IMG/VR virus record: IMGVR_UViG_3300043446_003177
Location: 64,001 to 128,000 of that record
DNA: 64,000 bases
Direction: 5' to 3' (one strand)
DNA from: a virus
Shown here: piece after piece, positions 11,708 through 42,100 of the stretch
How the letters are laid out: each line of letters opens with the position of its first letter
Numbering within the stretch: the first letter of the stretch is position 1
The notes under the pieces: generated by a model
Databases searched by the model: none
Told to the model about the DNA's origin: nothing
The model's input: only the letters and a program-made list of their open reading frames with translations
Made by a program: the position numbers and the translations under genes

Positions 11708-11875
11708 ATGACCATTGACCGAGACCTTACGCAAGAAGAATGGGACGAAATGAATGTACTTCGCAAAGCAATTAATTATAATCCAAGTCAAGTGCATCCA
11801 GACAAAATGCAGCGATTTAGTGAACTTCTAGTTAAATCTATGGGTGGTAACGGCGAACCCACGCGGACAGTTTAG
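11708..11875 (+). CDS. hypothetical 55-aa protein
   Basis: hand translation MTIDRDLTQEEWDEM...RTV; stop lies inside the palindrome at 11865. Confidence 0.6.
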   Translation: MTIDRDLTQEEWDEMNVLRKAINYNPSQVHPDKMQRFSELLVKSMGGNGEPTRTV

Positions 11876-11942
11876 AAAGCGGCACACAGGCGATCCTGGA
11901 GGGGTCTGGTGCCCTTATAATACTCTCATACGCAACGAACCG
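11865..11942 (+). promoter_or_regulatory. palindrome-associated early promoter (copy 1)
   Basis: GGACAGTT-TAGA-AAGCGGCAC, TATAAT at 11916, leader ACTCTCA...CAACGAACCG. Confidence 0.75.
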
Positions 11943-12404
11943 ATGACCACCACCTTCGCTGAGTATTCCGCCCAAGCAGAGGCACGGAAGAACATCGCAG
12001 AGGCAGTCCTGGGGCACACTTATGCTCTATGTGAGGCACTGCGCCAGAACTTCATTGAATACAGCATCAAATCCCATCAGAAGTTTGTTGATGATGCTGA
12101 TACTCATGAGTATCATCAAAAGCAGATTGATAAACTGAGGCAAGGTATTTGTGATTATGAGTTCTACCCTGAAACGGGTCGTAAGTATCATAAGATTATT
12201 ATGATAATTCATAATACTGCTAGTCCTACTGGCACTAGTCGCTCTGTCCATGCTTTTGTAGACAAGAAGACTGGTCAGGTTTACAAGTCTGCATCCTGGA
12301 AGTCTCCTGCTAAGGGTGTTCGCTACGATCTTCGCATTATTGAGCAGCGTGAATGGTTGCTTGAGAATGCTGATTGGGCAGGTTCCTATCTGTACGCTCG
12401 CTGA
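11943..12404 (+). CDS. conserved phage early protein
   Basis: GRKYHKI...SVHAFVDKKTG.VYKSASWKSPAKGVRY. Confidence 0.8.
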   Translation: MTTTFAEYSAQAEARKNIAEAVLGHTYALCEALRQNFIEYSIKSHQKFVDDADTHEYHQKQIDKLRQGICDYEFYPETGRKYHKIIMIIHNTASPTGTSRSVHAFVDKKTGQVYKSASWKSPAKGVRYDLRIIEQREWLLENADWAGSYLYAR

Positions 12405-18192: not shown

Positions 18193-18275
18193 CCTTGTGA
18201 TCTTAGCGTGCTTTCTATCACAAGAACCGAAAAAAGTCAAGCCCCCGCGAAAAAAGTTCCCAGACCCACACAAAA

Positions 18276-18645
18276 TCTCGACGAGACTTGACGCCAGAAT
18301 CTAGTCGAGATATAATACACACAAGGCATCATAAATCTAGTCGAGATATCCTGCAATAATCTCGTCGAGACCTCATGCATCATTATATCAAGCATTCATA
18401 AATCTCGACGAGATATGCAACAAATCTCGACGAGACTACACAACATTCGTCATCATAATACATCACAAATCTCGACGAGATACACTGCAAATCTCGTACA
18501 TCTCGTGCATATTATACACATAATCTCGACGAGAATGTGCATGAATCTCGTGTGCATTTCGTGACGAATCTCGATGCATATGCATATATACTTTCATATG
18601 CACGTCTCGATACATATGTACGGTTGACACGTGATCTCGTGCATG
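18276..18645. repeat. array of TCT(C/A)G-W-CGAGA palindromes (8 full sites plus 6 half sites) in non-coding DNA
   Basis: full sites at 18276, 18300, 18336, 18360, 18403, 18425, 18470, 18524; half sites at 18492, 18501, 18546, 18569, 18605, 18635. Confidence 0.92.
18288..18316 (+). promoter_or_regulatory. sigma70 promoter firing into the repeat array
   Basis: TTGACG-17-TATAAT. Confidence 0.8.
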
Positions 18646-19168: not shown

Positions 19169-19303
19169 ATGTGTGGTCCTGCTTTTGAGTATACTCGGGA
19201 AGATTTCCTGAATGATGCATCCCAAGAAGAATGGGATGAATGGGAACAGAAAGCGGCAGAACTTGAGCTGCCGTTGGATTACTACCTCGCTGAGTTTGTA
19301 TAA
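19169..19303 (+). CDS. small acidic protein
   Basis: EEWDEWEQKAAELELPLDYYLAEFV. Confidence 0.65.
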   Translation: MCGPAFEYTREDFLNDASQEEWDEWEQKAAELELPLDYYLAEFV

Positions 19304-19311
19304 TATTCCAT

Positions 19312-19665
19312 TGTGACGATCTGAGAACTGGTCCACACCCCCTTGCGGGATCCCCGAATTCGTTCTACATTGCATTCGTTCCTGAGAAACAAGCAAATGC
19401 GTCCTGTTGCTGTTCATCCCGAGAAAAGCATTCGTTTCACCAAACACGCTGCATTTTGGTGTGAGATGATTAATCTGTACAAGAGGAACTATCCGACTCA
19501 TTCGTTTCGTCAAATCGCTGAACATTTTGAATTGAGTGAGACGAATGCCCGTCGTTATTACTACGGCATTCATCACCACAATGCAGGGTATTTTGGTTGT
19601 GGGTATACTCAATTCCGTGAGGGGGCATGTGTGACGATCTGAGAACTGGTACATACCCCCTTGCG
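19312..19665 (+). repeat. 36-bp direct repeats (promoter copies 5 and 6) bracketing one gene
   Basis: TGTGACGATCTGAGAACTGGT(C/A)CA(C/T)ACCCCCTTGCG at 19312-19347 and 19630-19665, 34/36 identical. Confidence 0.9.
19397..19642 (+). CDS. helix-turn-helix DNA-binding protein
   Basis: SFRQIAEHFELSETNARRYY HTH pattern. Confidence 0.7.
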   Translation: MRPVAVHPEKSIRFTKHAAFWCEMINLYKRNYPTHSFRQIAEHFELSETNARRYYYGIHHHNAGYFGCGYTQFREGACVTI

Positions 19666-19746
19666 TTCCACGACCTGGGGGTGTTAAGTTGGTTTCGTGG
19701 TTGAGAAACGCATTCTCCCACACTGTTCTTTGCTCTCTACACTAAC

Positions 19747-20073
19747 ATGGAACTGACCAAATCTTTCCCCCCTGCTGATGATCTTGTGACTAAACTTTCT
19801 GCAATTGATTATCAAAAGCATTTTCATAAGTACATGGATATCGTTGAAACTGTTGTCGTTTATGTAGCTGCTATTGCTACTGTTCTCTGGGATAAGTTTC
19901 AAACCGTGAAGATCACCACTCCTGATATCATCTCTGAATATTTCTACTTCAACTTCAACATGCGTCGTGAATTTGGTGATGAATTCATTGGCGTGAGTGT
20001 TGGTAACCGTTACTTCGGGATTTATGATAACTCCGCTCAGTGGGGCATCCTGGACGAGAATGGTGCGCTCTGA
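19747..20073 (+). CDS. hypothetical protein with a hydrophobic segment
   Basis: downstream of promoter copy 6; stop lies in the next repeat. Confidence 0.7.
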   Translation: MELTKSFPPADDLVTKLSAIDYQKHFHKYMDIVETVVVYVAAIATVLWDKFQTVKITTPDIISEYFYFNFNMRREFGDEFIGVSVGNRYFGIYDNSAQWGILDENGAL

Positions 20074-20144
20074 GAACTGGCACATGGGGGGTTGATCTGC
20101 CCCCCGATCCCTGATACATTACATTCGTACCTGAGAGGCACACC

Positions 20145-20279
20145 ATGTTTGATGAACTCTGGAGTGAGATTCAAGACGCCCCTGGTGAAATCTTTGATCT
20201 CCCCGAATTGCGTGAGTTTGATGATCAGTTCGATGATAAAAGTTTCGGTGATTTCCTGAACTCCAACAATGACTTCTGA
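20145..20279 (+). CDS. 44-aa highly acidic protein
   Basis: hand translation MFDELWSEIQDAPGEIFD...; 14 D/E versus 2 K/R; GAGG RBS. Confidence 0.65.
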   Translation: MFDELWSEIQDAPGEIFDLPELREFDDQFDDKSFGDFLNSNNDF

Positions 20280-20280
20280 A

Positions 20281-20433
20281 ATGCAATCGATCAAAGAGTT
20301 CTTTAGTGATTCTGAGTGGGATCTGATTTATGATCTTTTAGAAAGCAATCGTCAGTTTGATACTGATGAGTCGTATGCTGAAGATTACGACACTGCTCTG
20401 AAGAAAATCCGCGATCTCTTTGAGGAAAAGTGA
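20281..20433 (+). CDS. 50-aa acidic protein
   Basis: hand translation MQSIKEFFSDSEWDLIY... Confidence 0.65.
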   Translation: MQSIKEFFSDSEWDLIYDLLESNRQFDTDESYAEDYDTALKKIRDLFEEK

Positions 20434-20678
20434 TGAACAACAACGCTAAGACTTGGACCGATGATTTCTCTACTCTGGTGGAGAAGTATGCCGAGTTCGT
20501 GATGGACGGCATGGATTGGAAGACTATGGAACAGTTCGTATTTGATACATTGGTTTCCTCTTACAATGAGTATTCTGAGGAAGAACTGATTAGTGAGATT
20601 CGTGAGTGTTATGATGATGAAGTCCTGGAAAGTTTCGGCGTAAAGATAACAGATGGTCCTGAGGATGTGACGGCCTGA
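20433..20678 (+). CDS. acidic conserved cyanophage protein
   Basis: YAEFVMDGMDWKTMEQF...EELISEIRECYDDEVL. Confidence 0.7.
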   Translation: MNNNAKTWTDDFSTLVEKYAEFVMDGMDWKTMEQFVFDTLVSSYNEYSEEELISEIRECYDDEVLESFGVKITDGPEDVTA

Positions 20679-20732
20679 GAACTGGCACATGGGGGGTTGC
20701 GGTCCCCCCCTTTTTCGTGCAATACTAACAGT

Positions 20733-21620
20733 ATGAAAAACACACACATCGAACACCCCGAAGATTCCATCCTGAACGGTGATCTGACCGTGCTGGATTG
20801 GTTCGTGAATGAGGGTAACCTCAGCGTCAAGATTGATGGTGCTCCCGCCATTGTGTGGGGTAAGAATCCTGCGAACGGTGAGTTCTTTGTGGGCACCAAA
20901 TCTGTGTTCAACAAAGTTAAAATCAAGATCAATCATTCTCATGAAGAAATTGATGCGAACCACCAAGGGAAGGTTGCAGAAATTCTTCATGCTTGTTTTG
21001 ATTGGTTGCCTCGTACAGAGTTTATCTTTCAAGGTGATTTTATTGGGTTTGGTGGTAGCGATGAGTATACTCCTAACACGATCACTTATAAGTTCCCTGA
21101 GGTAGTTGATCAGGAGATCATTGTTGCTCCTCATACATTCTACACTGCAGAGAATGACCTTCGTGATGCTGTAGCGCATCCGATGAACTTTATCATCACG
21201 GATACTCATTATGTGAAATTTGTGAAACCCCGTGCATACATTCTGCACGGTCAAACGTCGTTCGCTGATGTAGAAGAGGTGTGCAACTTCGCCCGTCAAA
21301 TGTCTACTACTGTGGACTTCGTTGAGGGTAAGCAACTTTCCGAACTGAAGAAGCAACTCAACGCCTGCATTCGTGAGGGTCGTGAGATTCAAGATGATGC
21401 ATTTGATTGTGATGCTAACCTGATTCGTTTGTGGAAGTTGGTTAAGAGCATCAAGGAAGATTGCCTGTTCCTGTGTCGCAATGATGGTCCTGCAGCGTAC
21501 ATCGTACAGGATCGAATTGATGCCGAAGGTTATGTGATGACCAATGAGTTTGGTATGTTCAAACTGGTGAATCGTGAGGTATTTTCTCACGCCAACTTTA
21601 CCCTGGAAAAGGCATGGTGA
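20733..21620 (+). CDS. DUF6267-like protein with ATP-dependent ligase/nucleotidyltransferase motifs
   Basis: NTHIEHPED, KIDG (motif I), FQGDF, EGYV, FKLV. Confidence 0.7.
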   Translation: MKNTHIEHPEDSILNGDLTVLDWFVNEGNLSVKIDGAPAIVWGKNPANGEFFVGTKSVFNKVKIKINHSHEEIDANHQGKVAEILHACFDWLPRTEFIFQGDFIGFGGSDEYTPNTITYKFPEVVDQEIIVAPHTFYTAENDLRDAVAHPMNFIITDTHYVKFVKPRAYILHGQTSFADVEEVCNFARQMSTTVDFVEGKQLSELKKQLNACIREGREIQDDAFDCDANLIRLWKLVKSIKEDCLFLCRNDGPAAYIVQDRIDAEGYVMTNEFGMFKLVNREVFSHANFTLEKAW

Positions 21621-21652
21621 AGATAAATACCAAAAGTATACTCAATTAGAAA

Positions 21653-21814
21653 ATGGAATATAGAAAAGAGTTAGAAGTAAATGCAGCTGCACATGAAGCC
21701 TCCAAGTTCCTCCTTGATTCATTCAATCAGGCAGTGGTTGGTGATATTAAAGTGCTCTCCAATCCCGACCAGTTGAGAAGTGTGCCAGTTGAGGAAGCGT
21801 CCACTGAGGATTGA
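21653..21814 (+). CDS. small hypothetical protein
   Basis: hand translation; C-terminus VPVEEAST is encoded by the palindrome. Confidence 0.45.
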   Translation: MEYRKELEVNAAAHEASKFLLDSFNQAVVGDIKVLSNPDQLRSVPVEEASTED

Positions 21815-21839
21815 CTTTCCCCCTGATCTGCGCCATACT
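21782..21839 (+). promoter_or_regulatory. palindrome-associated early promoter (copy 9)
   Basis: GTGCCAGTT-GAGG-AAGCGTCCAC; TTGACT-17-CATACT. Confidence 0.75.
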
Positions 21840-21880
21840 ACGTTTGTTCAATTCAATCCGTGTCGAGCACGGCAAACACA

Positions 21881-22633
21881 ATGGGTTTCAAGACTGACGG
21901 TTCTGTTCACCACGGCGGTGTGAAGAATGAGGATCTCACCGTTCGTATTCTGAATGAGATGAAGATCTACGCTCACACTGTAGAAAAGCGTGGCGGTACT
22001 AAGTGTAAAGAAGACGCTGTTGCTGGTGATCAACTGATCAGCATCAAACGCAAGGAAGGCATCAAGAATGGTTCCTTCGATTGGTTCAACACCAGCGCCT
22101 ACAATGATGTGCTGGGTGATACTTTCTCCTCCTTTCTTTCCAATGTGAAAGAGTTGCGCTCGCTGCCTGAAGTGATCCGCAACGATGATGAATTGGTCCT
22201 GAAGATCCGCGACAATTTCAATCAACTTTGTGAGTTGGCGCTGGATAGTCTCAGCAAGGATCAGATTGTTAACATCCTCAAGCGTGGTCTGATTGATAAC
22301 AACTCTGGTTTTGATGTTGTCGTTAACGACACGAAGTCTCAGGAGGTCTACATCTTCTCCGCTGACGATCATCCCGCAGTTTCCTACATCGAACGTGGTT
22401 ACACTCCCGTTCTCAAAGGCAACGGTAAATCTTCCCGCTCTGTCTACTTTGTAGATGCCGAAGGGAATGTGTATGATTGTGGTCTGCGTTTGCGGGTGAC
22501 CAGTAACAACGGGATCAATGCTTTCCTGGGCAACAGTAAAGCAAACTCTAACTCTCAAGTTGTCATCAAACTGCAGCAGGATAAGGTAGCGAATCTCCTG
22601 CAGCAGGTCGATGCCCGTGTGACGGTCTACTGA
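21881..22633 (+). CDS. putative PD-(D/E)xK type II restriction-endonuclease-like nuclease
   Basis: GVKNE...KED...ISIK spacing resembles MspI/HinP1I-type active sites. Confidence 0.55.
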   Translation: MGFKTDGSVHHGGVKNEDLTVRILNEMKIYAHTVEKRGGTKCKEDAVAGDQLISIKRKEGIKNGSFDWFNTSAYNDVLGDTFSSFLSNVKELRSLPEVIRNDDELVLKIRDNFNQLCELALDSLSKDQIVNILKRGLIDNNSGFDVVVNDTKSQEVYIFSADDHPAVSYIERGYTPVLKGNGKSSRSVYFVDAEGNVYDCGLRLRVTSNNGINAFLGNSKANSNSQVVIKLQQDKVANLLQQVDARVTVY

Positions 22634-22699
22634 GTGTCCACTGGGGGGCGCTGCTGCCCCCCTGACCCCCTACAATACTGACAGATCAAACGACCCCCC

Positions 22700-22939
22700 A
22701 TGAAAGTCCAACCCATCGGCAGCAACCAAACCGAGGTGTCCCTGGCAAACGGGACTGAGGTTCTGTTCTCCTATCAGACCCCTGTCGCCGCGCTGGTCCC
22801 TGGTCTGGGGTGGATCCGCACTGACAAGAAGTGGAGCGCCACCACCACCAAGCACATTAACGCCTGGCTGCGGAAGAACTGCGGCGGCGATGTCCAGAGT
22901 GTGCCGCAATGGGAACTGGACCAGTTGGTCGCCTTCTGA
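22700..22939 (+). CDS. conserved small phage protein
   Basis: FSYQTPVAA...WSATTTKHINAWL. Confidence 0.8.
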   Translation: MKVQPIGSNQTEVSLANGTEVLFSYQTPVAALVPGLGWIRTDKKWSATTTKHINAWLRKNCGGDVQSVPQWELDQLVAF

Positions 22940-22980
22940 CCCCCAGACCCCCTACAATATTCTCAGATCAAACGACCCCC

Positions 22981-23121
22981 ATGATCCGCTACGAAGTCCG
23001 CTACCAGACCCCCTACAATCAGTGTGAGTGGCGGTCGCAATGGTTCCGCACTCTGGAGGAAGCGGAGCGCATGGTAGAGTTCTACCGCTCCTGCGGTTCC
23101 CCTGCCCACATCGCTCCCTGA
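22981..23121 (+). CDS. small hypothetical protein
   Basis: own promoter; EAERMVEFYRSCGSPA. Confidence 0.7.
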   Translation: MIRYEVRYQTPYNQCEWRSQWFRTLEEAERMVEFYRSCGSPAHIAP

Positions 23122-23153
23122 TCTGCTACAATACTCTCAACCGCAAACGACCC

Positions 23154-23339
23154 ATGAAAGTTTACGCTGTGATCGGTGGCATTGATTATGAGGGTGAGGA
23201 TTTCGATTCCCTCCGCCTGTTCGATTGCCTCTCCACTGCCGCGGCCTATGCCCGCCAGCTGAAGGATGAGAAGGGGTTCGATTATACCATCCTGGAGACC
23301 CGCGAGGTCTGCCTGGAATCCGCCCTCTGTGCCGCCTGA
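23154..23339 (+). CDS. small hypothetical protein
   Basis: own promoter; MKVYAVIGGIDYEGEDFDSLRLFDC. Confidence 0.75.
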   Translation: MKVYAVIGGIDYEGEDFDSLRLFDCLSTAAAYARQLKDEKGFDYTILETREVCLESALCAA

Positions 23340-23413
23340 GGTACTGTCCACTCGGTCCTGGGAACGACCCTAAACTGCCCTACACTGATCAAGTCAACCA
23401 AGGGAACCAACCC

Positions 23414-23578
23414 ATGCGCTACAACCCCGCCACCGACCGTGCCGTTTCCATCGATGAGATTGCCGCCCAGTGCCGTAACGCTATCCTGAAGGCAGACGCC
23501 TGCCGCGCCATCGACGCCGCCTATGAAGAGATCCTGGAGTTTGCCCGCTGGGAGAATGATGTCCTGATCCCTGCCTGA
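23414..23578 (+). CDS. 54-aa hypothetical protein
   Basis: hand translation MRYNPATDRAVSIDEIAAQC...; own promoter. Confidence 0.7.
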   Translation: MRYNPATDRAVSIDEIAAQCRNAILKADACRAIDAAYEEILEFARWENDVLIPA

Positions 23579-23639
23579 TACAATGGGAGCGGGTGCGCCC
23601 TGAAAGACGCCCAGCACAAACCCTAACCCCTTTGATCGA

Positions 23640-23768
23640 ATGACCCGCGAACTCGCTCTGTCCCTGCTCCGTCAAGGCACCAATGGTGGCCAGATCCTGG
23701 AGATCCTGGACTCTATCGCTGCTGATGATGCCGCGGCCGGTCCGACCGCTGAAGAGATCCAATTCTGA
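23640..23768 (+). CDS. 42-aa hypothetical protein
   Basis: hand translation MTRELALSLLRQGTNGGQILEILD... Confidence 0.65.
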   Translation: MTRELALSLLRQGTNGGQILEILDSIAADDAAAGPTAEEIQF

Positions 23769-23837
23769 ATCTGACCACTGCCCCCCACGGTTCGCCGCTG
23801 GGGGGTTTACACTATGGGAACCAAAGCAAACGAACCA

Positions 23838-23999
23838 ATGCAACGCCTTGACGTGATCTGCCCCTCCGCTCCCTGGGAGAACACTACCACCGATGAGGAC
23901 CGCGCCTGGGATCTGTGCCTGTCGCTCTCTGAAGAGTATGGGTACGCTCAGGTCCGCCAGAATGGGGTGATCATCGGAGACTACACTGAGGGGCGCTGA
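23838..23999 (+). CDS. small acidic hypothetical protein
   Basis: own promoter; CAAACGAACCA leader. Confidence 0.7.
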   Translation: MQRLDVICPSAPWENTTTDEDRAWDLCLSLSEEYGYAQVRQNGVIIGDYTEGR

Positions 24000-24039
24000 C
24001 CCCCGACCTGCTACAATACTCTCAACTGCAACCGACCCC

Positions 24040-24267
24040 ATGGGCATCCCCGTCAACTGCAACGATTCCGCCAGCGTCTGGACTCTGAGCGCCAATCCGA
24101 TCACCGGTACCGTCCGGGTCCGCTGGTTCAATGCCCCCACCATCTGCTACCGTCACGAGGGCATCTCCCGCCGCGCCATCCTGTCGCTGCTCTGGGATTC
24201 CAACCGCTCGCTGGGACAGTGGGTAAACCGTCACTGCCTGCAGTCCCATGTGACCCTGACCGCCTAG
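24040..24267 (+). CDS. KTSC-like domain protein
   Basis: S..V....V.V.W....YR...I....I..LL....S.G.W.N pattern. Confidence 0.5.
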   Translation: MGIPVNCNDSASVWTLSANPITGTVRVRWFNAPTICYRHEGISRRAILSLLWDSNRSLGQWVNRHCLQSHVTLTA

Positions 24268-24293
24268 GATACTCTCAACAGCAAACGACACAG

Positions 24294-24488
24294 ATGACCG
24301 AAGACCGCCTGCTCTCCCTCTACGATCAACTGCTCGCCCTGGCCGAGCAGATCGCTGAAGAGTCCTACGGATGCGACCTGGACCGCCTGGACCCTGAGCA
24401 TCTGGAATTTTACGGTGCCCGCCTGACGGAGGATAACCTGGAGGATCTGGCTGCTGATCTGGCCGCGGCCGCCTGGTTTGAGAACTGA
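24294..24488 (+). CDS. highly acidic helical small protein
   Basis: own promoter; D/E-rich. Confidence 0.7.
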   Translation: MTEDRLLSLYDQLLALAEQIAEESYGCDLDRLDPEHLEFYGARLTEDNLEDLAADLAAAAWFEN

Positions 24489-24529
24489 CCTGCGACCTGC
24501 TACAATACCAAAGCAACCGACACCGACCC

Positions 24530-24727
24530 ATGGCCCTCTACAACATCGCCACCGATCTCCAGACCCGCCAGACCGTATGGGTCAGCACCAACGTCGCCAA
24601 GGGTCGCCCCCAGCTGAACTCCCACCGGGATGATGGTGCTGGCCGTTCGCTTGCTTCCCATGGCGTTGACGGTCTGAGCGCCGCCGAACTGGCAGGTCTG
24701 CACACTGACTACGTTGGGCGGGGTTGA
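24530..24727 (+). CDS. small hypothetical protein
   Basis: own promoter; RQTVWV motif. Confidence 0.7.
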   Translation: MALYNIATDLQTRQTVWVSTNVAKGRPQLNSHRDDGAGRSLASHGVDGLSAAELAGLHTDYVGRG

Positions 24728-24775
24728 CCCCCCCCTCCCCGTGCTACAATACTCTCAAGTCAACCGACCCGACCG

Positions 24776-24952
24776 ATGATCCTCTCCCAAGCATCCCGCC
24801 TCACCGATCGCCAGACCGTGTGGGTTGCCCGCAGGAATGACGACACCCCCTTCTACAAACTGACCACCGACTATGGGGTGCCCGCCACCGTATGGGCAGC
24901 GCAGTTCGCTGAGGTGTGCGCCGCCGACGTGCAACCGATTCAATGGGGGTGA
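24776..24952 (+). CDS. 58-aa protein paralogous to the upstream ORF
   Basis: hand translation MILSQASRLTDRQTVWVARR...QWG. Confidence 0.7.
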   Translation: MILSQASRLTDRQTVWVARRNDDTPFYKLTTDYGVPATVWAAQFAEVCAADVQPIQWG

Positions 24953-25011
24953 CCCCCCACCTGCTACAATACTCTCAACCCAATCGCCCCGTGTCGATCA
25001 CGGGTCACCCT

Positions 25012-25230
25012 ATGTCCCCCGTCCGCATCAAAGACGCCCGCCGTACCCTTGACCGCTTGGGTATGGTCTGCCGTGAGGGTGCTAAGCATCGCATCTACAC
25101 TCACCCAACCCGCCCCGATCTTCGGATGACTCTGCCCCATCGCGGTTCGGGTGGGCGTCCTACGCTGTCCGTTGGTCTGTCGTCCTCATTTCATAAGTTC
25201 GTGGCGGCAGTGGAAGCGGTTCGTTCGTGA
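25012..25230 (+). CDS. hicA: HicA-family mRNA interferase-like protein
   Basis: L.RLG...REGAKHRIYTHP...RMTLPH dsRBD-fold pattern. Confidence 0.7.
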   Translation: MSPVRIKDARRTLDRLGMVCREGAKHRIYTHPTRPDLRMTLPHRGSGGRPTLSVGLSSSFHKFVAAVEAVRS

Positions 25231-25471
25231 AGGGCAGCGGGCAGTGTATGGTATAACGTTATCGTTATGCCCGCCCGCCGCGCCCCCTTATATAAAAATC
25301 GATAACTACCCTAACCTACAACGGACCAAAAGAGCGAGAGAGATATAAAGAGACTGAAAAAATTTTTGGGTAGAAAAAACCGAAAAAGGGGTTTTATAAA
25401 CCTGCATATATAATGGGAAATAACTGAGGTTGTCTCAAAAATTTTTTCGGCGCATAATTCCAGATAATCTT

Positions 25472-30136: not shown

Positions 30137-33100
30137 ATGGTCAAATCAAGAGTAAAAGTTGCGACTGTTTTAGAAAGTCAACTTCCAGAATTTATCAAGG
30201 AAGAGTATCCACTTGCTTCCGAATTTTTATCGCAATATTATAATGCTATAGAGCATCAAGGTGCCCCTCTTGATTTGTTGAATAATATTGACCAGTATGT
30301 AAAATTAGATAATGTTACTGGGTTAGCCAAAACAACTCATCTAACTTCATCTATTGAATTTTATGATAAGACAATAAAAGTAAATTCAACAGAAGGATTT
30401 TCAAACAAATATGGATTACTTCAGATTGGAGATGAAGTAATTACATACACAGGTATAACAACAAATAGTTTTACCGGATGTATTAGGGGATTTGTAGGAA
30501 TAACCTCTTTTAAAAATTCTTTAAAACCTGAAGAATTAGTTTTTTCGGAAACAAATGCTGCTAGCCACGAAAGCAGCTCTGTAGTTAAAAATTTAAATAC
30601 TTTATTTTTAGAAGAATTTTTACTTAAATTAAAAAGACAGTTTGCTCCAGGATTTGATGGTAGAACTTTAGTACCAAATTTAAATGAAAATTTATTCATA
30701 AAGCAAGCAAAAGATTTTTATTCATCCAAGGGAACTGATGAATCATTTAAAATTCTTTTTAAGGCTCTTTATGGAGAAGAGATTGAGGTAGTTAAACCAA
30801 GAGATTATTTATTCCAAGCATCAGATGCTAGATTTAAAAGCACAAAAGATTTAGTAGTTGAGGCAATTGTTGGTGATCCAAGAGACTTAGTTAATAAAAC
30901 TCTAATTCAAGATGAGACTGATTATTCAACTAAGGCATATGGATCTGTAGTAGATGTTGAAAGATTAGTTAAAAATAATAAAGAATATTATAAGATAAGA
31001 TTAGATTATGAATACGATAAAGACATTGCTTTGTCTGGATCAGTTTTTGGAAACTTCACCATTCACCCCAAAACAAAAATAGTCAATACTGAAGATATTG
31101 ATGAAGGATCATCAACAATATCAGTTGACTCTACTGTAGGATTTCCAAATTCTGGAACACTACTGCTAAAAATATCTTTATATGATGATAATGAACTTGC
31201 AAGTATTATAGAAATTCCTTTTACTTATACTGGAAAAACTATTAATCAGTTTTTGGGATGTCAGGGTCTTCCCGAAATTCTAACAAAAAATGAATATGAA
31301 GTCAGAATAAACGATTATGCATATGGACTAACCGATAGTGGAGATCAAGTCAGAGTAAGAGTATCTGGTGTTTTATCTGATCTTGATATCAAAACAAATA
31401 CATACTTGTGCGAATCTGGAGATGATATTAATATTATCTCTCTTGGTAAAGAAGGGTCATCTTCACGCGAAAATAGTTGGGTATATAACATCCCAGTAAC
31501 TTATGCAATTAGATCTATTACAGTTACTTCTTCAGATCCAACTTACAGAATAAGAACTTTTGACCCCCATATAATTTCTAGATTTGATTCGGTAATTTTA
31601 GAATCTGCTGATGGCGTCAAAAAAATTGCAAAGGTTTTAAGAGTAAGTAGTGATGATAGTTTTATCATTGGAGATCAAGGGACTTTAAATTTAAATACAT
31701 CTTATACTGTAACCAGAAGAATTGCTAAAGTAAATACTTTAAATTCTCCAGAATCTAACGTATATAATGCAAATATTCAAAATGTTTATTTTGGAGAAGA
31801 TGATGAATTATATGTAGCTTCAACTTCACTACCAAATTACCAAGAAAGTGTAGATGTTAGAGATTTATCAAAAACTTTTAATGGATCATTCGCCAATACA
31901 GAAATTATAGATATTGGCCCTAATAGTTTTTATACAGGCGATTCAGTTGTTTATAGACCAGGGCCAGAAGGAAATAGGTTAGATCTTGCTGAAGGTGTAT
32001 ATTTTATCAAAAAAATTGATGAAAGAAATATTAAATTATCCAGAAGTAGATCAAATATAAACACAGAGTCTTTTGTAAAGGTTACAGGAAACTTATCTGA
32101 AAATGCAAATAAATTTGAATATTTTGATTTTTCTTATCAAAAACTAGAATCTCAAAATATTATTAGAAAAGTTTGTAATATAACAAACGATTCTAAAACA
32201 TATAAAACAACATCAGGATCTATTGGTATTTTAAAAAATGGAGTTGAGGTTCTCAACTACAAGTCAAAAGATTCTATTTTTTATGGACCAATTGAATCAA
32301 TAGAGGTTTTATCTGAAGGATCTGGATATGACGTTATAAATCCACCGATTTTACAAATTACAGATCCAACTGGAACTGGATGTACTGGATATTGTGCAGT
32401 AACAGGAAAATTAGAAAGAGTTGACATATTAGATAGAGGATTTGACTATCTAGAAAATCCAACTATTACCATATCCGGAGGAGACGGATCTGGAGCTAGA
32501 ATAACTGCAAATTTAATATCAGTAGACCATGAAGTAACTTTTAACTCAACCGAAAAGGGTGGGTTAATTGATGTAGCAAATAGTATAATTGGATTTTCAA
32601 CTGATCATAAGTTCAGACATGGAGAAAGAGTATTTTATTATACAAACAATCAAAGAGCTATCGCAGGATTAACAACTGATGCTTCATATTTTGTATCTGT
32701 TCTTGATTATAAAAGGGTTAGACTATATAAGGAAAAAAATGATGCAATTTCTAGAAGCGACAATTATGTAGGAATTGGAACAACATTTGGTGTTGGAAAT
32801 CATGCATTAAAGTCTGCAAAAAAGAAAAAAATAATAGGATCTGTTAATATCATTTCACCAGGAAGTGGGTATAAAAATAATAAAACTGCAGTAGATACGA
32901 ATGATACTCGCAAGTTTAATGATATCATTATCCCCTTAGATACGATTAAGATCAAAAATCATGGGTATTCTAGCGGAGATATAGTTGTATATGATCCACC
33001 AGCACAACCAATAGGTGGTCTAGCTGCTACATCTTATTATCTAACAAAAGTAGACGCCGACAATTTCAAACTATCCCAACTAGGATCACCTGGACAGGAA

Positions 33101-36100
33101 AATTTTTATTACAGGACTAAACAATATGTTAATCTAACTTCAAAGGGAGTTGGAATACATACTTTTAATCACTTACCAATTACTATAAAAGTATCTGGTA
33201 GATTGGGAATTGGTACAACTGGAAATGATAAATATCAAGCAGTTTTAAATCCAATTTTTAGAGGATCAATTACTTCAGTAAATGTTGTTAATGTTGGATC
33301 TGGATATGGTTCTCCTGATATTATTAACTTTAATAAGCAACCAATATTTGATCTAATTAGAGGATCTTCCGCACAATTAATTCCGATTGTTGCTGATGGT
33401 CGAATTAGAGATGTATTAATCAATTATTCTGGAACAAATTATAACTCCACTCCTAATATTATTATTGAAGGAAGTGGTAGTGGGGCTGTTCTTGTACCAA
33501 TAATTCAGGATGGAATATTAGTTGATATTAAAGTACTTAACGGTGGATTTGGATACTTACAAAAAGACACTAAAGTTACAATAATTGAAGCCGGATTTGA
33601 AGCTTCTTTTTCAGCCAAGATTAAGCAATGGACAATTAATATTTTTGAAAGACTTTCAAGGACTAACGAATTAACATTGGATGATGGAATAATTGCAAAT
33701 GGTTTAAATCCAAATTATGGTTTACAGTATTCGCATGTATACGCACCAAGACCACTAAGAAGGATTCTAAACGCGGTTACTGTTAACGATAGTGGAAGTA
33801 ACAATTACAGACCAGATATTGAATCTGATACAGACCCCGTTTTAAGATACCACTCTCCAATTATAGGATGGGCCTATGACGGAAATCCAATTTATGGACC
33901 ATATGGATATTCTTCCGTATCGGGTGGTACTGTAGTTAGAATGAAATCTGGATATATTTTGGATTTAGATCCAGATAGACCATCCACATTTCCTGCAGGA
34001 TTTTTTGTTGAAGATTATGTTTATAACGCTACTAATGGAAATAATGAAGAATATTTGGATGAGCATAACGGAAGATATTGTGCTACCCCAGATTTTCCAA
34101 ATGGAACATATGCATATTTTGCTACTATTTCCAATGAAACAGTTGAAACAGATGGACCCTTCAGAAATCAAAGAAAACCAGTATTCCCATACTTAATTGG
34201 AGATACTTATAAGTCAAAACCAGATTTATTTAACTTTAAAAAAGAATCAAATCAAAATGATTTAGATCTCAATAGTACCAATTGGACAAGAAATACATAT
34301 CCTTATAATTTTGCAAGATCAAGAACTTTTTATAATTTCTTAGAAAATCCATTAAGCGATGGTAATTTTATAAACGCTGAAGTTAAGAGTATTGGTAGAG
34401 GATTTGTATCTGGTATAGAAATTGTAAATCCTGGAAAAAATTATCAACCAAGAGATCAAATAGTATTTAATAACGAGAATACCTTCGGATCAAATGCCTT
34501 TGCGAAGGTTGAATCTGTTTTTGGTGTAGGAATTTCTACAGTTAGTACAGCATCTTCTACTATTAGTAATATTGAATTTGTACCATATGGTAAAAAAGGT
34601 AATTTTATTGCAATTAGTTCCATTCCACATGGTTATATAAATGGAGAGTATGTAACTATAAGTGGATTAAGCACAGATGGTACAGAATTAAAAGGATTTT
34701 ATACTGCAAATGTAGATACTACATATTATTCATTAAAGGTAGGTATTGAAACTGGAACAACAACCGGAATTGTTACTTATATTAGCATTGCAGGTCCATT
34801 AGATTATCCATATATTGAAGAAAATGATATTCTCGAAATAGAAAATGAACTTGTTAAGGTTTTAAACATTGAACCTGGAAGTTCACGAATTAGAATTTTA
34901 AGACAATACAATGGCACAGTTGCGACCGCACACTCAGCTTCATTAAATTTTTCAGACAGACCAAGAAGATTTGTAATTAATTCTGGATTTACTACAACAT
35001 TTGAATATGTAAGAAATAGAGAATATTATTTCAATCCAAAAGAGTCTGTTGGATTGGGAACAACATCTGGAGTTGGTATATCGTCAGCACTATTCTTTGG
35101 ATTAGATAATTTGAATGTTCCTGTAGGAATAGCTACAAGTTCAGCAACTGTTTTGTATTTTAAAAATGACTTTGATATCTATAAGTTTAATACTGGTGGA
35201 TATATTGAAATAACCAATACTACAACTGCAACTGGAATTGCAAGCACTGCTTTCCACAAACAGCATGTAAAAATAATTTCTGTAGGGTCAACTGCAATAA
35301 CTGTTAATTTCAATTCATCATCTTTACAAGGTGTCGGAGTAACAGCTTTTATTGGAAAAGAAAAATCAGAAGAAATACCAACAAAATCCATTTATATTCC
35401 AAATCATAATTTAATAACAGGAACTAGATTAGAATATAGTCCAAATCAAGGGTCTTCTTTGCTAGTTTCCTTGAATGGAATAACTACATCTTTAACTCAG
35501 TTTTCTTCACTTTATGCGATCAAGATTGATAAAGATACGATAGGAATTTCTACAGTAAGAGTTGGGTATGGTTCCACTGGAATTATATCTGGAATAGGAT
35601 CTACTACAACTACCAATCCACAATTAGCATTTGTTGGATTTGGTACGGGAGTATACCATAGTTTCAAAACAAAGTATGATAATGTTGTTGTTGGAGATTC
35701 CACTATCAACAGAGTAACAGTCTCTACTGGGGAAACTCATGGTCTTGTAGTAGGCAATTCTATTAATATGAATCTAGTGTCCACATCTACTACTACAATT
35801 GTTGTTCAATATAATGATGAAAATAGAAGAATTGTATTAAATCCAAAATCTTTTGTATCTGCTAATGTAAATACACAAGAAAGTTCGATTCAAATTAATG
35901 ATCATGGATTCTATGATGGTCAAAAAATCATATATGTAGCATCCAATCCATTAACCCCTATTGGAGGTCTGACTAGCAATGGAATATATTATGTAATCGC
36001 AATTAACAATAATAGTTTTAAACTTGCTGCAAGTAAGAGTGATGCTACTAGAAAAATTCCTTTATATATTAACTTAACCTCTGCATCTGATGGAACTATA

Positions 36101-39100
36101 TATCAGATAAATCCAAGGATACGAGTATACAAAAATCAAAAAATAGAGTTTGATTTATCAAGTTCCACACTCTCATATAACTTCAAATCTGCATTTAATT
36201 TCTCATTATATAGAGATAAGAACTTTAAACATATTTTCAAATCTGATGAAAAAGATACAGTATTTGAATTATCATATTCTGGACCTATTGGTATTTCACC
36301 CGTAGCTAAAGCAATATTAACAATAACTGACAATTTCCCAAGAAAATTATACTATAAGTTGAATCCAATAGATATTGCAACTTTATCTGACGTTAAAAAA
36401 GATATTATCATTGATAATGAAGTTGAAGATAGAAACGCTATTGAAATCATAACTAGCAAATATAATGGAGAATATCCAGTACTTGGTATTACAACTAATA
36501 AATTTGTTTATCCAATTCCAGAAAAACCAGAGAAAATGGTTTATACGAATTTGATAGATTGTAATGCAAAATATTCTACAAAAGCGTTAAATGCTTATGG
36601 TTCCATTGCTACGATTAATATCAATAGTAAGGGACAGGGTTATAAGTACGCTCCAGGAATATCTTCTATAATTTCAGATTATGGATCTCAAGCTGTTTTA
36701 AGAGTAAGGACAAATAATATTGGAAGAATAAAAACTGTTAAAATTAATAATATTGGATTTGATTATCCATCAGATAAAACTTTAGGTCCTACTGCAAAAC
36801 TACCACAAATACTAAAAGTAGATGTTCTTTCTATAGTAGATAGAATAGGAATTAGTTCTGGTGGAAAAAATTATATAAAAAATCCAAAATTAATTCTTTT
36901 AGATGGTTTAACTTTAAAACCAGTAAAAGATATTGATTTAAGTTATAAAGTTGGAAATCCAACTGTAAAAATTCTTAAGAATACTGACGGTATTAATAAT
37001 GTAACTCCTATTATAATCCCAACAAAAAATCCAAATGGAGTTAAAATTAACTACATTACATTTGATTCTGGATCAGGAATTGCGACTGCTGGAATTGCAG
37101 TAAGTTATAGCGATGCTAAAGATTTTCCTTTCAACGTTGGTGATAAAATTTTAGTCGAAAACACTCAGATTATCCCCAAATCTGGTAAAGGATTTAACTC
37201 CAAGGATTATGATTATCGTTTGTTTAATATAGTAAGCACAGATCCAAACATTGGGGGAGAAAATGGATCAATAACTTACGACATGAGTTCTATTTTGCAA
37301 GATGGTTATCTTCCAGGAACATATGATACGATTAACTCAATAGGATCAATAGTACCCGAAAAATATTTCCCCAAATTTAAAATTACTCTAAAACAAAGAG
37401 ATTTTAGAACTGGAGAAACTATTAGATCTGGAACTAAATCGGCAAAAGTTGAAAAATGGGATGATCAAAATAACTACTTAAAAATTTCTGGAAATCAAAG
37501 TTTCTTAGAAGGGGATTTAATTTTTGGAAGATCTAGTAGAACAAAAGCAACAATTTCGGAAGTAGTTTCTTTTGATTCACAATATAACATTGATTCTTAC
37601 AGCATTTCTCCAGCTGGATTCTTCAGAGAAACTGGGTTCCTAAACAATAATCTACAAAGATTGCATGATAATGAATATTACCAATATTTTTCATATGCAA
37701 TAAGTTCAAAAATCCCAATGGATGTTTGGGATGAACCAGTATCAACTCTAAACCATACTTCTGGATTTAGAAAATTTAGTGATCTTAAGGTTGAATCTTT
37801 TGATTCTGCTTATGCTGGGATAACTACATCTCAAGATGAAGGATCTTTCTTTGGAATAAATGATATTACAAGAACTGTAAATATTAACTGTGTTAATGAT
37901 TTTGATCTTGCAACAGAAAATTCAATTTTAATAGACGATGAATTGACTTCCAATCAAATTATCTTTGCAACTAGAATTATACAAGATTATTCTGAAGCGG
38001 TAACTAATAAAGTCTTAATCATTGATGATATTAGTAGTCAATTTACTTCCGAAAATGAAGATATAACTTATTCTGTAGCAGACAGGGTTTCTGATATTTT
38101 TGATTTTACAAGCAAAGTAACTCAAAAGTTACTAACATTTGTGAAGGATAAGAGATTTGTCGAGAAAAGACAACTTTCAAACGTTACCTTAATTCAAGAT
38201 AACTCAAGTGGATATATCAATGAATATGGTAAAGTTTACACTGACGAAGATTTAGGATCTTTTGATGTTATTACTTATTATGATACTTCTGATATTGTTT
38301 TTGTACCAAATCAATCTAAAGAAAACTCTTATTCTGTAGATATTCTTTCGTTTAATCCAAGTTATACTGAGTCTGTTTCTGGAATATCTTCCTTAAACAT
38401 CGGAAGCAAAGTTAACATAAAATCGAATAAAATTACATATAGTGGAACAGGATCTAAGACAATCGTTGGTATTGCATCAACATATAGATCTGCAAAAATA
38501 CTAGTTGAAGTTGTTAATGCTCAAAACAAAATAGAATTTAATGAATTATCTTTAGTTCATGACGGATCTTCAGTATCACTTCTAGAATATGGAAAATTAA
38601 ATAATAACAAATCATATGGAACAGGTATTGGAACTTATGGTGCCGATCTTTCCTCTAATAATATATTTGTTAAATTCTATCCAAATGAAAGTGGAATTGG
38701 AACTGTAAAAGTTCTATCAGTTTCTATCGCAAATACATCTACTACTGGACTATCAACATATAAGTTGAGCAATTCTATTTTGAATAGCAATACGATTGGA
38801 ATTGCATCAACATCTTCTCCAGGAATAACTACAATAGCATCTTACACTCACTTATCTTATGGTGAAAATTATGGTGGCGCATATTATATTGTAAGTGTTT
38901 CTGATAAATTAAATAATAGACACCAAATCTCAGAAGTTGTCGTAGTCGATGACGGTAATGATGCGGTTTATGTTGAATATGGAAACAATTCAACATCTAT
39001 AGGACTTGGTACAGTTGGCGCAGGAGTTACTAATTCAACGACTAATTTATATTATACTCCAATATCTAATACTGCGGTTGAAGTAACTGTTTTCCAATCG

Positions 39101-42100
39101 TCAATTGGAGTTAAAAATGAAGTTGTTACTACGCAGAAAATTGATTTTTCACAAGGATCTTTAAAAGTATTATCCAGTTCATATACTGGAACAGATATTT
39201 TAGATTATAAGTATGATTTGTACCACAAAAATCTTCCTATTTTTGAAAGAGAATTTGATGCTAGTGACTCTTCGATTGTTTCTATTAGTAATAATTCAAT
39301 AAAATTATTAAATCACTATTTTGTTAGTGGTGAGGAAATAACATATAGCATTGCCGATCCAACCATTGAGTCCCCAATAGGAATTGGAACTACTTCAATA
39401 GTTGGTATTGGTACAACAGATAAATTACCATCAACTCTTTATGTTATAAAAGTTAGCAACTCTGAAATAAAATTTGCATCTTCCGCACAAAATGCACTGT
39501 CTGATCCTCCAGAATACTTAACAATAACTTCATTGGGATCAGGAAAGAGACATAAACTTACTGCTAAAGATCAAATAAGCAAGTCTCTTATCACAATCGA
39601 CGGTATTATTCAATCTCCACTTGCAAATTCTTATATAAAAACTTCTTTGAGTACGTCAATTACTACTTACAGTAATGTAATAAAGGTTGCAGGTATTGGA
39701 AGTTTGGCTTCTGGTGACTTAATACGAGTCGATAATGAGATAATGAAGATTAAGAATATTGGTGCAGCAAATACAATATCTGTTTATAGAAGTAGATTGG
39801 GCACCGAATTAACTTCACATTCAATTGGAACTAGCGTTACCAAACTTTATGGTAATTATGATATTATTGATAACTCAATTTATTTTGTTGATCGTCCATA
39901 CGGAACAACACCGGTTGGTGTTCCCACTAGTAAACCAGATCAAAGAGATTATAGTGGGATTACTACACAATCTTATTTTAGTGGAAGAGTATTTACAAGA
40001 TCGGGAGTTCCAGAATCAAGTCAAAAAGCTTATTCTGATAACTTCGTGTATGACGACATTTCAAATCAATTTAATGGATTTACAACTTCGTTTACTTTAA
40101 AATCTAACGGAAACAACCCTACAGGGATTCAAACTTATAATCCAATCGTTCTTATAAAAGGAATATTCCAAAATAATGAGAGATCTGGAACAGCGGTAAA
40201 CGTAACCGGCAACTTCAAACTCGATGATTCATCGGGAATTTCTACTATAACATTCTTTGGATATTCCGGCATACAAACATCCGATATCAATGTCTCAAGC
40301 ATTCCAATCGGTGGAGTTATTGTTGCAGCGGGATCTTCGCAGGGATTTGGTTACCAACCTCTAGTTTCTGCAGGAGCAACAGTGAGAGTATCCTCAGCTG
40401 GAACAATCACTACAATTAGTATTGGTAGCAGTGGTTCTGGTTACAGAAGTGGAATACAAACATCTGTTACAATCTATGCTAGAAATTCCGGAAATATTAG
40501 TTACGGATCTACGATTATTGGATTTGGAACAATTTATCAAGGAAATGTTGTAAATCCAGTATTAACAAATCCAGGAATTGGATTTACAAATTATACAATT
40601 ACGAGATCAGCATTAGTAACGGCTTCAGTTTCTGCAGGAAGTACAATTGTATACGCCTCAAACCTATCCTTTATTTCCGTAGATGATTATGCATCTGTTG
40701 GATCTGCATTAACTAATGTAAGAATTGTCGGATTGAATACTGGATTCTTTACTATTGGTTCGGCAAGTACTTCTGTAGTTGGTATTAATACTAATGATAT
40801 TATTATATTTAAAAAGTATTCTCCTCCTACAATTACTATAGATAATCCAATTGGATATACTAATATTCCATTAAAGTATGCCGCAGGAAAAACTGGATTA
40901 GGAACTGGAGCTGCAGTTGATATTGTAGTTGGGCAAGGATCAAGTGTTATAGACTTTACGTTAAAAAATTATGGATTTGGATACAAACCTGGAGATATTT
41001 TAACTGTAGATACATCCTCCGTTGGGGTTCAAACAAACAGATCTGCAGGATCTCAATTTAAACAATTCTTTATTTTTGTTGAGAATGTCTACTTCAGCGA
41101 CTTTAGTGCTTGGTCATTTGGTGAACTACAAATTATTGACGACATATCTCCAAACTTTAATGGAAGACGTAAGATATTTAACATAAGCATTGATGGTAAA
41201 ATTACGTCAATTACAACTAAAAAAGGATCGAATATCGATATTCAAGCAAACTTGATTATTTTTGTAAATGATATATTACAAAATCCAGGAGAATCTTATT
41301 TCTTCGATGGTGGTAGTACAATCGAGTTTTCTGAAGCTCCTAAAGGAGCAGATGCGTTAGGTCAAGGTGGAGACACTTGCAAAATATTCTACTATAGGGG
41401 AACTAGAGATGTAGACGTAATTGATGCCGATATTTTAGAATCTGTAAAAGTTGGAGATGATCTAACTCTTACAAGTGATATTGAAAAGTATCAACAAGAA
41501 GAAAGAGCAGTTATTTTAGTCGATTCCACAAGTAGTGTAATCACAAATGCTTATAGTGAAAATGGAGTTTCTGAAGATCCTAAGTTAAGGAGACCTGTTA
41601 TATGGTGCAAGCAAACTGAAGATAGAATTATTGATGGAAAAGAAGTGGGTAAAGATAGAGTTTTATACGAAGCTCTAATTAATCCAGTGGCTACTGTAAT
41701 AAGAAACGTTGGAATTAACACAAATCAAATATTTGTTGATAGTATAAAGCCATTCTTTAATGATAAAAAAGAAAATATTGGAAGCAAATTCTCATCTAAG
41801 ATTGAAATTTATGAAAATAATGATAATTTCGTATCTGCATCTGCAACATGTATAGTTTCTATTGCCGGAACAGTTCAATCTGTAGTTCTTGCTAATGGTG
41901 GAAATGGATATACAAATCCACCTACAGTCACTTTCACCGAACCATATGGTGTAGGAAATACGGGTAGAGCATCTGCAACTGCATCAATAACATCTGGAGT
42001 TGTAACTTCAATTGTAATTGATAATCCAGGAATTGGATATTCTTTAGGCAGACTTCAAAATGTTAGCATTAGTTCTACATTCTTTGGTTCTGGATTCCCT

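Follow-up and report, generated by a model that had tools for sequence, protein, structure and literature searches.

A putative promoter-early stem-loop-type cassette array in an uncultured T4-like cyanophage

An array of small genes separated by repeated, promoter-like modules was found at 19.3-25.2 kb of a 64,000-nt stretch of viral DNA (the window, bases 64001-128000 of the 172-kb IMG/VR record IMGVR_UViG_3300043446_003177; estimated completeness of the record, 81%). We consider it probable, at roughly 75%, that this region is a hyperplastic early-gene array of self-contained cassettes lying between composite regulatory modules, that it is the cyanophage counterpart of the promoter-early stem-loop (PeSL) system, and that its cassettes are shuffled via UvsX/UvsY. 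Few viruses of the ocean are as abundant as T4-like cyanophages, whose many small early ORFans are believed to control host take-over and host range. All open reading frames (ORFs) of the array lie on the plus strand, and two families of repeated modules stand between them. Within the whole 172-kb record both families are confined to 19.3-25.0 kb, and one looser module lies outside the main run, at 11.9 kb.

The window codes for a gp6-like baseplate wedge, a T4 neck protein, a T4-type large terminase and a tail sheath. The nearest isolates are marine Synechococcus/Prochlorococcus myoviruses, e.g., S-SM2 and Bellamy, at ~68-73% nt identity. Judging from these structural genes and nearest isolates, the source is an uncultured T4-like cyanomyovirus. 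A megablast search of the window against isolate phages returned no match, and the best IMG/VR relative showed 80% amino-acid identity in the DUF6267 protein.

Boundary sequences were gathered from related contigs (>100) and sorted into two composite module classes. A 15-mer scan picks up some chance matches in unrelated contexts, and only contexts that passed a filter on promoter geometry were counted. Modules of both classes extend from the stop codon of the upstream gene, or from just before it, to the next ATG. The long module consists of a dyad (TGTGnCA-N10-TGGCACA), a predicted -35 box in a polyG/polyC hairpin, a 17-nt spacer, a predicted -10 box and a conserved leader, all at fixed spacing. 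Measured from the dyad core, TTG was located at +20 in 55 and TAnnnT at +43 in 53 of 108 unique contexts (69/108 within +/-1). The predicted -35 box is mostly within the loop of a G5-6/C5-6 hairpin. When 127 long modules were chosen by the -10 box and leader alone, i.e., not conditioned on the dyad, 86 of them carried the dyad at the expected place. Dyad copies in the window fall within 19312-23813, and others were found in the isolates S-PM2 (record positions 20116 and 20654) and Sf-CH1b (record position 58940).

The short module reads TGACC..TGcTACAATACTCTCAA..CAAACGACCC-ATG. It opens with TGA-CC and runs through a C-rich stretch, the extended -10 box TGcTACAAT and ACTCTCAAC to a leader that ends in CAAACGACCC-ATG; no hairpin is present. 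Short modules prevail in the GC-rich array. There, a stop-to-ATG module of 26-74 nt lies 5' of each ORF: eight modules are of the short type (TGACC..TGCTACAAT..CAAACGACCC), and dyad or hairpin modules are found at 22634, 23340 and 23769. G6/C6-7 hairpins occur in the long modules at 20056 and 20661, where they enclose the -35 box, and in the dyad/hairpin modules at 22634 and 23769.

Both module classes supply stop codons to the preceding gene. In long modules, the stop of the upstream ORF was at -44 (TGA in the dyad spacer) or -52 (TGA in the left arm) in 87/119 cases (73%), the two TGAs being in differing reading frames. At 30 of 51 sites, the longest upstream frame was the one ended by the spacer TGA, compared with 0 and 1 for the other two frames, and the upstream proteins therefore end with V-[T/P/A]-x-stop. 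Among 279 unique short modules, the upstream ORF stopped no more than 25 nt from the -10 box in 74%. The preliminary description of this DNA, made from the sequence alone, had already proposed that the repeats provide the stop of the gene before them. This was true of CVTI* (19642), NGAL* (20073) and DVTA* (20678), as well as of RVTVY* (22633), which terminates the 250-aa ORF inside a degenerate dyad, ALCAA* (23339) and RTV* (11875). It was not true of the copy at 19312, which closes no ORF, as the gene upstream stops with TAA at 19301-19303.

The repeats themselves were all recovered as described. The 36-nt copies at 19312 and 19630 were 34/36 identical, and CTGAGAACTGGCACATGGGGGGTTG occurred exactly at 20070 and 20675. 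The pair noted near 22664/22946 consists of 48-nt copies at 22651 and 22933 with 88% identity. Four exact copies of TGCTACAATACTCTCAA were found (23124, 24009, 24742 and 24962), with no other in the 172-kb genome. A 15-nt core gave 12 matches at no more than three mismatches, against 2.96 +/- 1.73 in shuffled sequences, and chance is not an explanation of the repeats. A host origin of the short module was rejected: its 17-mer had 50 scattered single matches in 596 Gb of cellular genomes, where a calculated ~70 were expected by chance, and none of these was in Synechococcus.

Other parts of the preliminary description had to be revised. It had given nearly every gene its own promoter; modules are not one per gene, and the three ORFs at 20145-20678 use a single one. 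The reported lack of terminators between the genes is partly wrong, since G6/C6-7 hairpins lie at 20086-20106, 20691-20710 (with a T run directly 3'), 22643-22662 and 23780-23805, and a strong hairpin follows at the array end (25232-25285). A 318-bp cassette had been called a helix-turn-helix unit. Its ORF at 19397 matched no Pfam or PHROG family, leaving that label unsupported.

The two arms of the dyad do not covary. The left arm has C or A, the A variant making the TGA, and the right arm keeps a constant G. An RNA hairpin was rejected on this ground and because the free-energy z-scores of the modules were unremarkable. The fixed distance to the promoter boxes, together with the missing covariation, argues for a DNA-level promoter or operator element. 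An Rfam scan for RNA families gave one sub-threshold miRNA match only. A sigma-54 promoter was also rejected, as the spacing in TGGCAC..TTGC is N8 and not N5; cyanobacteria are not known to have sigma-54. The half-sites resemble TGTGA..TCACA, which we take to be the form of a CRP/NtcA-type site, but the spacing is presumably unsuited to such a protein.

Cassette turnover was then traced in related contigs. Because the closest relatives of the window are only ~80-90% identical at the nucleotide level, sister contigs were used to map recent events. More than 119 viral contigs contained the 17-mer of the short module. Genes for DUF6267 and/or phrog_1574 flank it in ~100 of 119 fetched contigs; ~5 contigs were chance matches in low-GC DNA. 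The interval between the two anchors varied from 1.7 to 7.8 kb across 35 loci with both. These loci and the window, 36 in all, showed 34 gene orders, and one ORF family had up to 15 different neighbours. An invariant gene order in relatives would have spoken against cassette exchange; the order is mosaic.

Contigs that were 96-99% identical to each other (L017, L022, L025, L051, L102, L103 and L117) differed in that about one to two small ORFs were inserted, deleted or replaced. Base by base, their junctions lay directly 3' of CTGCTACAATACTCTCACCC, inside TACAATAyCAAAGCAACCGACA or in the leader sequence CCArAGCAAmCGAC. One ORF was swapped exactly between the leader and the next TGACCTGCTACAAT. 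Replacements retained both flanking modules, with unrelated ORFs between them (event E). An indel set was compiled between blocks at least 93% identical and held 13 distinct entries, three of which are the same 436-bp event. Seven indels were of GC-rich DNA (194-518 bp). Five of these were flanked by direct repeats of 51, 46, 39, 26 and 17 bp consisting of module sequence, and the remaining two had a 9-bp overlap and none. A 324-bp indel beyond the GC-rich part had a 31-bp flanking repeat of dyad plus hairpin. Thus, the breakpoints of gene gain and loss fall inside the repeats in these sister contigs for most GC-rich indels, as had been predicted.

Homology blocks gave the same picture on a larger scale. 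In the GC-rich island, 64% of 204 unique block ends were at -15 to +40 of the -10 hexamer, against 20% of random positions, an enrichment of about threefold. Relative to the -10 box, the median start of a block is -8.5 and the median end +17, and adjacent blocks therefore overlap inside the module. For the window itself, matches to relatives at 75-90% identity were mostly one cassette long, and 128/182 distinct match ends fell between a stop and the next ATG, although such intervals cover just 19.5% of the region. These data support the view that whole promoter-plus-ORF units may be gained, lost or swapped at boundary repeats without an integrase. The proposal that the boundary repeats serve as excision and insertion points thus stands for the related contigs, and the window's own cassettes lie outside that evidence. 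The modules appear as the places where exchanges are found, and are not shown to raise the exchange rate.

Searches for tyrosine (PF00589) and serine (PF00239) recombinases gave no match in the 172-kb record, which is an estimated 81% complete, and the same searches were positive in control genomes. The array was accordingly integrase-free over the rest of the record, as the preliminary description had supposed. A UvsX-like RecA and UvsY are encoded in the record. Crossover positions are spread over the dyad, hairpin, -10 box and leader, with no single point. Because crossovers are spread, no integrase or resolvase was found and UvsX/UvsY are present, the pattern fits general homologous recombination on short repeats, probably not an integron-like site-specific system. 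The UvsX-type recombination system is described as working on short homologies (Singer et al. 1982, as cited in PMC2839356). Non-allelic modules have 25-50 nt of near-identity in common. In the proposed mechanism, UvsX/UvsY would pair such modules within one genome or between co-infecting genomes. Whole promoter-plus-ORF units would then be deleted, inserted or replaced, possibly through a circular intermediate, and the neighbouring ORF and its stop would stay intact.

Several observations weigh against this reading. The other indels, outside the GC-rich part, had homology of no more than 2 bp. Surviving breakpoints should lie between genes anyway because of purifying selection, and the intergenic DNA here is almost all module. 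The enrichment of breakpoints cannot separate modules that cause recombination from a situation in which only module recombinants survive, and promoter function alone can explain the conservation of modules. The recent events come from contigs other than this genome, which has no relative closer than the ~80-90% given above. A simple sigma-70 scan was not enriched (10 matches against 6.6 +/- 2.4), because most modules have no canonical -35 box, and the promoter and terminator roles are consensus predictions, as is the early timing a prediction from sequence.

A rival explanation has purely regulatory modules, i.e., strong co-regulated early promoters with an operator dyad and no special role in recombination, with turnover by illegitimate recombination plus selection and with incidental junction repeats. 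The fixed dyad/-35/-10 geometry and the conserved leader suggest function, the dyad arms are conserved without covariation as for a protein-binding site, and some indels have almost no homology. We nevertheless regard this explanation as unlikely. Most GC-rich indels have direct repeats of 17-51 bp and remove promoter-plus-ORF units in register, the replacement in event E retains both flanking modules around unrelated ORFs, homology blocks overlap inside the module, and the phage codes for a recombination system able to use short homologies.

Site-specific, integron-like capture was weighed as well. Here the dyad and hairpin would be an attC-like site at which a dedicated phage or host enzyme, a recombinase of some unrecognised family, cuts and joins the DNA. 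An imperfect palindrome does lie at the 3' end of every long-module cassette and is kept in S-PM2 and Sf-CH1b, and the array does consist of small promoter-bearing ORFs of unknown function. However, the record contained neither type of recombinase, crossovers are not at one point, most cassettes of the GC-rich array have short modules without the dyad, and the constant distance of the dyad to the -35 and -10 boxes fits a promoter element, making such capture very improbable. It is just as hard to credit that the repeats are remnants of a tandem duplication of one ancestral cassette with ORFs since diverged: the neighbouring ORFs at 24530 and 24776 have weak N-terminal similarity (E = 0.002), but other neighbours have none although the modules between them are 85-100% identical, and the same ORF families stand beside many different neighbours in other contigs.

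Homologous exchange between modules has a close precedent. The PeSL of phages RB49 and phi1 contains an upstream stop codon, an upstream region, sigma-70 boxes and a downstream start codon (PMC2839356). Its stem-loop, often polyG/polyC, overlies the boxes or stands between them, as a terminator or attenuator (Arbiol et al. 2010, PMC2839356). Crossovers at these PeSLs were mapped to the loop or to the stretch from the -10 box to the ATG, and the same paper drew a comparison with integrons (PMC2839356). The class is further marked by dense repetition among non-essential small ORFs of hyperplastic regions and by mini-circles excised during infection. PeSLs were later extended to T4/PST and KVP40/nt-1 (Comeau et al. 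2014, PMC4122927). The analogy to PeSLs in the preliminary description was apt, as the published RB49/phi1 account fits the present array almost point by point. The upstream stop lies in the module (73% of long and 74% of short modules), boxes of sigma-70 type are predicted, and some of the modules, though not the short ones, have a putative polyG/polyC stem-loop over or between them. Dense repetition of the modules among small ORFans of a hyperplastic region is a further shared trait. They bound indels and replacements (here in sister contigs 93-99% identical; for the window only at 75-90%), crossovers fall between the -10 box and the ATG or in the hairpin, and no integrase is involved.

The differences from coliphage PeSLs are also clear. 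The host here is a cyanobacterium, and the sequences are unrelated. A conserved, stop-carrying dyad takes the place of the AT-rich upstream region, and there is no Shine-Dalgarno sequence. Modules of the GC-rich array are mostly short, with an extended -10 only and no hairpin. The array has 60% GC in a genome of 37% GC, and its cassettes are known from sequence, not as mini-circles. We therefore describe what appears to be a PeSL-type system in a cyanophage that differs in dyad, Shine-Dalgarno sequence, short modules and GC content. A full-text search found no description of a PeSL system in cyanophages, though prior mention of the dyad or modules elsewhere is possible.

Two other systems share some of these features. 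Like integron arrays, the present one has small ORFs in one orientation, repeated and partly palindromic boundaries, and variable content at a fixed genomic position. Unlike integrons, it has no IntI-type integrase and no attI site, each cassette has its own predicted promoter where the integron has a single Pc, and crossovers are spread (block ends at -15 to +40) around a boundary at a fixed distance from the promoter boxes. Lambdoid morons are likewise single genes with their own promoter and terminator between resident genes. They have no conserved flanks, and their boundaries do not guide recombination, whereas one repeated boundary family is seen here.

The cultured phage S-PM2 (NC_006820) carries a comparable array. 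Its 'ORFanage' at 5.8-15.3 kb resembles the present region in that small, dispensable ORFans of a T4-like cyanophage form a block; PeSLs were considered for it and judged unlikely (Puxty et al. 2015, PMC4503421). The S-PM2 module array sits elsewhere, at ~20.1-24.7 kb, with 55-63% GC and the same dyad and short modules. At record positions 23018-23206 (2501-2689 of our locus L286), S-PM2 has an ORF that is homologous to the one at 24040-24267 of the window (52% aa identity) but is not annotated; short modules with an identical CAAACGAAACGACCC-ATG leader stand on both sides of it. Beside it in the matching region lies S-PM2p068, a gene annotated 'anti-restriction protein'. Sf-CH1b had one dyad and S-SM2 none.

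The GC content of the region was analyzed separately. Mean GC is 36.6%, and 22.6-25.2 kb, at 59-62%, is the sole such island in the record. For the three codon positions, the array had GC fractions of 0.62/0.47/0.73, the stretch at 19.2-22.6 kb 0.53/0.32/0.48 and the structural genes 0.43/0.40/0.20. Among 58 loci sampled solely by DUF6267 similarity, 34 had a core of at least 55% GC at the same position, and S-PM2 has one too. An assembly chimera behind the GC jump was rejected, because many independent contigs, and this isolate as well, show the same GC-rich array. Other cyanophage contigs have versions of these ORF families with 31-45% GC, the GC distribution being bimodal, and for this reason the high GC belongs to the region and not to the gene families. 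A speculative extension is that the GC-rich sub-array might be more than imported DNA, namely a standing recombination hotspot, its composition kept by GC-biased gene conversion at the repeated modules or by selection of host-like codons in the genes translated first, and that the stop-carrying dyad might bind a phage or host factor coupling control of early transcription to cassette exchange. The 34 of 58 loci, S-PM2 and the bimodal GC versions are compatible with this idea, which we consider doubtful.

If genes are gained and lost exactly at the promoter modules, these would provide a concrete, homology-guided route for ORFan turnover. The dyad, TGcTACAAT and the CAAACGACCC leader could be used as signatures for putative early promoters and cassette boundaries in metagenomes. 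As the same modules are present in cultured S-PM2, the idea is open to bench tests.

Table 1. Features of the cassette array and its outlying module (window coordinates; -35 and -10 boxes are predicted)
Feature	Position	Strand	Details
Outlying like module	11862..11946	+	RTV* stop, GC hairpin, CTTATAATACTCTCAT..CGAACCG-ATG
Long promoter module 1	19312..19396	+	Dyad TGTGACG-N10-GGTCCACA, TTGCG (-35), TACATT (-10), leader
81-aa ORF	19397..19642	+	Final four codons and TGA inside module 2
Long module 2	19630..19746	+	34/36 nt same as module 1; hairpin; TACACT -10
108-aa ORF	19747..20073	+	Stop is the TGA in the dyad spacer of module 3
Long module 3	20056..20144	+	Dyad; G6..C6 hairpin around TTGATC (-35); TACATT (-10); leader ACATTCGTACCTGAGA
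Three small ORFs, overlapping/abutting (44, 54, 81 aa)	20145..20678	+	Module 3 common to all three
Long module 4	20661..20732	+	Dyad TGTGACG-N10-TGGCACA; G6..C7 hairpin and T run (terminator-like); TGcAATACT -10
DUF6267 / phrog_455 gene	20733..21620	+	Conserved left anchor of the relatives' variable interval
53-aa and 250-aa ORFs	21653..22633	+	Presence varies among relatives
GC-rich array, ten ORFs of 42-79 aa	22634..25011	+	59-62% GC, GC at third codon positions 0.73
Last cassette, 72-aa HicA-like ORF	25012..25230	+	Weak match
Strong hairpin at array end	25232..25285	+	-29.9 kcal/mol, z = -3.0; AT-rich DNA beyond

Cassette genes mostly matched PHROGs of unknown function or nothing. The last of the three ORFs at 20145-20678 (81 aa) matched DUF7326 and ends within the dyad of module 4. 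The 72-aa ORF of the last cassette matched Pfam HicA at E = 0.0056, under the cut-off, and phrog_18430, 'toxin', at E = 4e-8. This HicA-like ORF is an orphan: no HicB partner adjoins it, and it is the final cassette before the closing hairpin. The preliminary description had suggested host-takeover or anti-defence genes; the weak HicA-like match and the 'anti-restriction protein' annotation in S-PM2 are what speaks for such putative roles. The 79-aa cassette ORF at 22700-22939 (phrog_5643) has ~50% identical homologues in phages of Pectobacterium, Cronobacter, Enterobacter and Klebsiella, and it also matches genes in phages of Listeria, Ralstonia and Streptomyces, an unusually wide range for a small phage gene. 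In the window and its relatives, the predicted -10 box of the DUF6267 gene (TGcAATACT, window 20712-20735) lies just 6 nt 5' of the ATG, which suggests that its mRNA is leaderless or near-leaderless.

Upstream of the array, the stretch at 18260-18640 is gene-free and crowded with near-palindromes (AATCTCGwCGAGAT), many of them adjoining boxes similar to TATAAT. Replication might start here, or the stretch may serve as a multi-operator region. The structural module of the window holds two giant ORFs, of 4263 aa (30137-42928) and 2475 aa (44518-51945).

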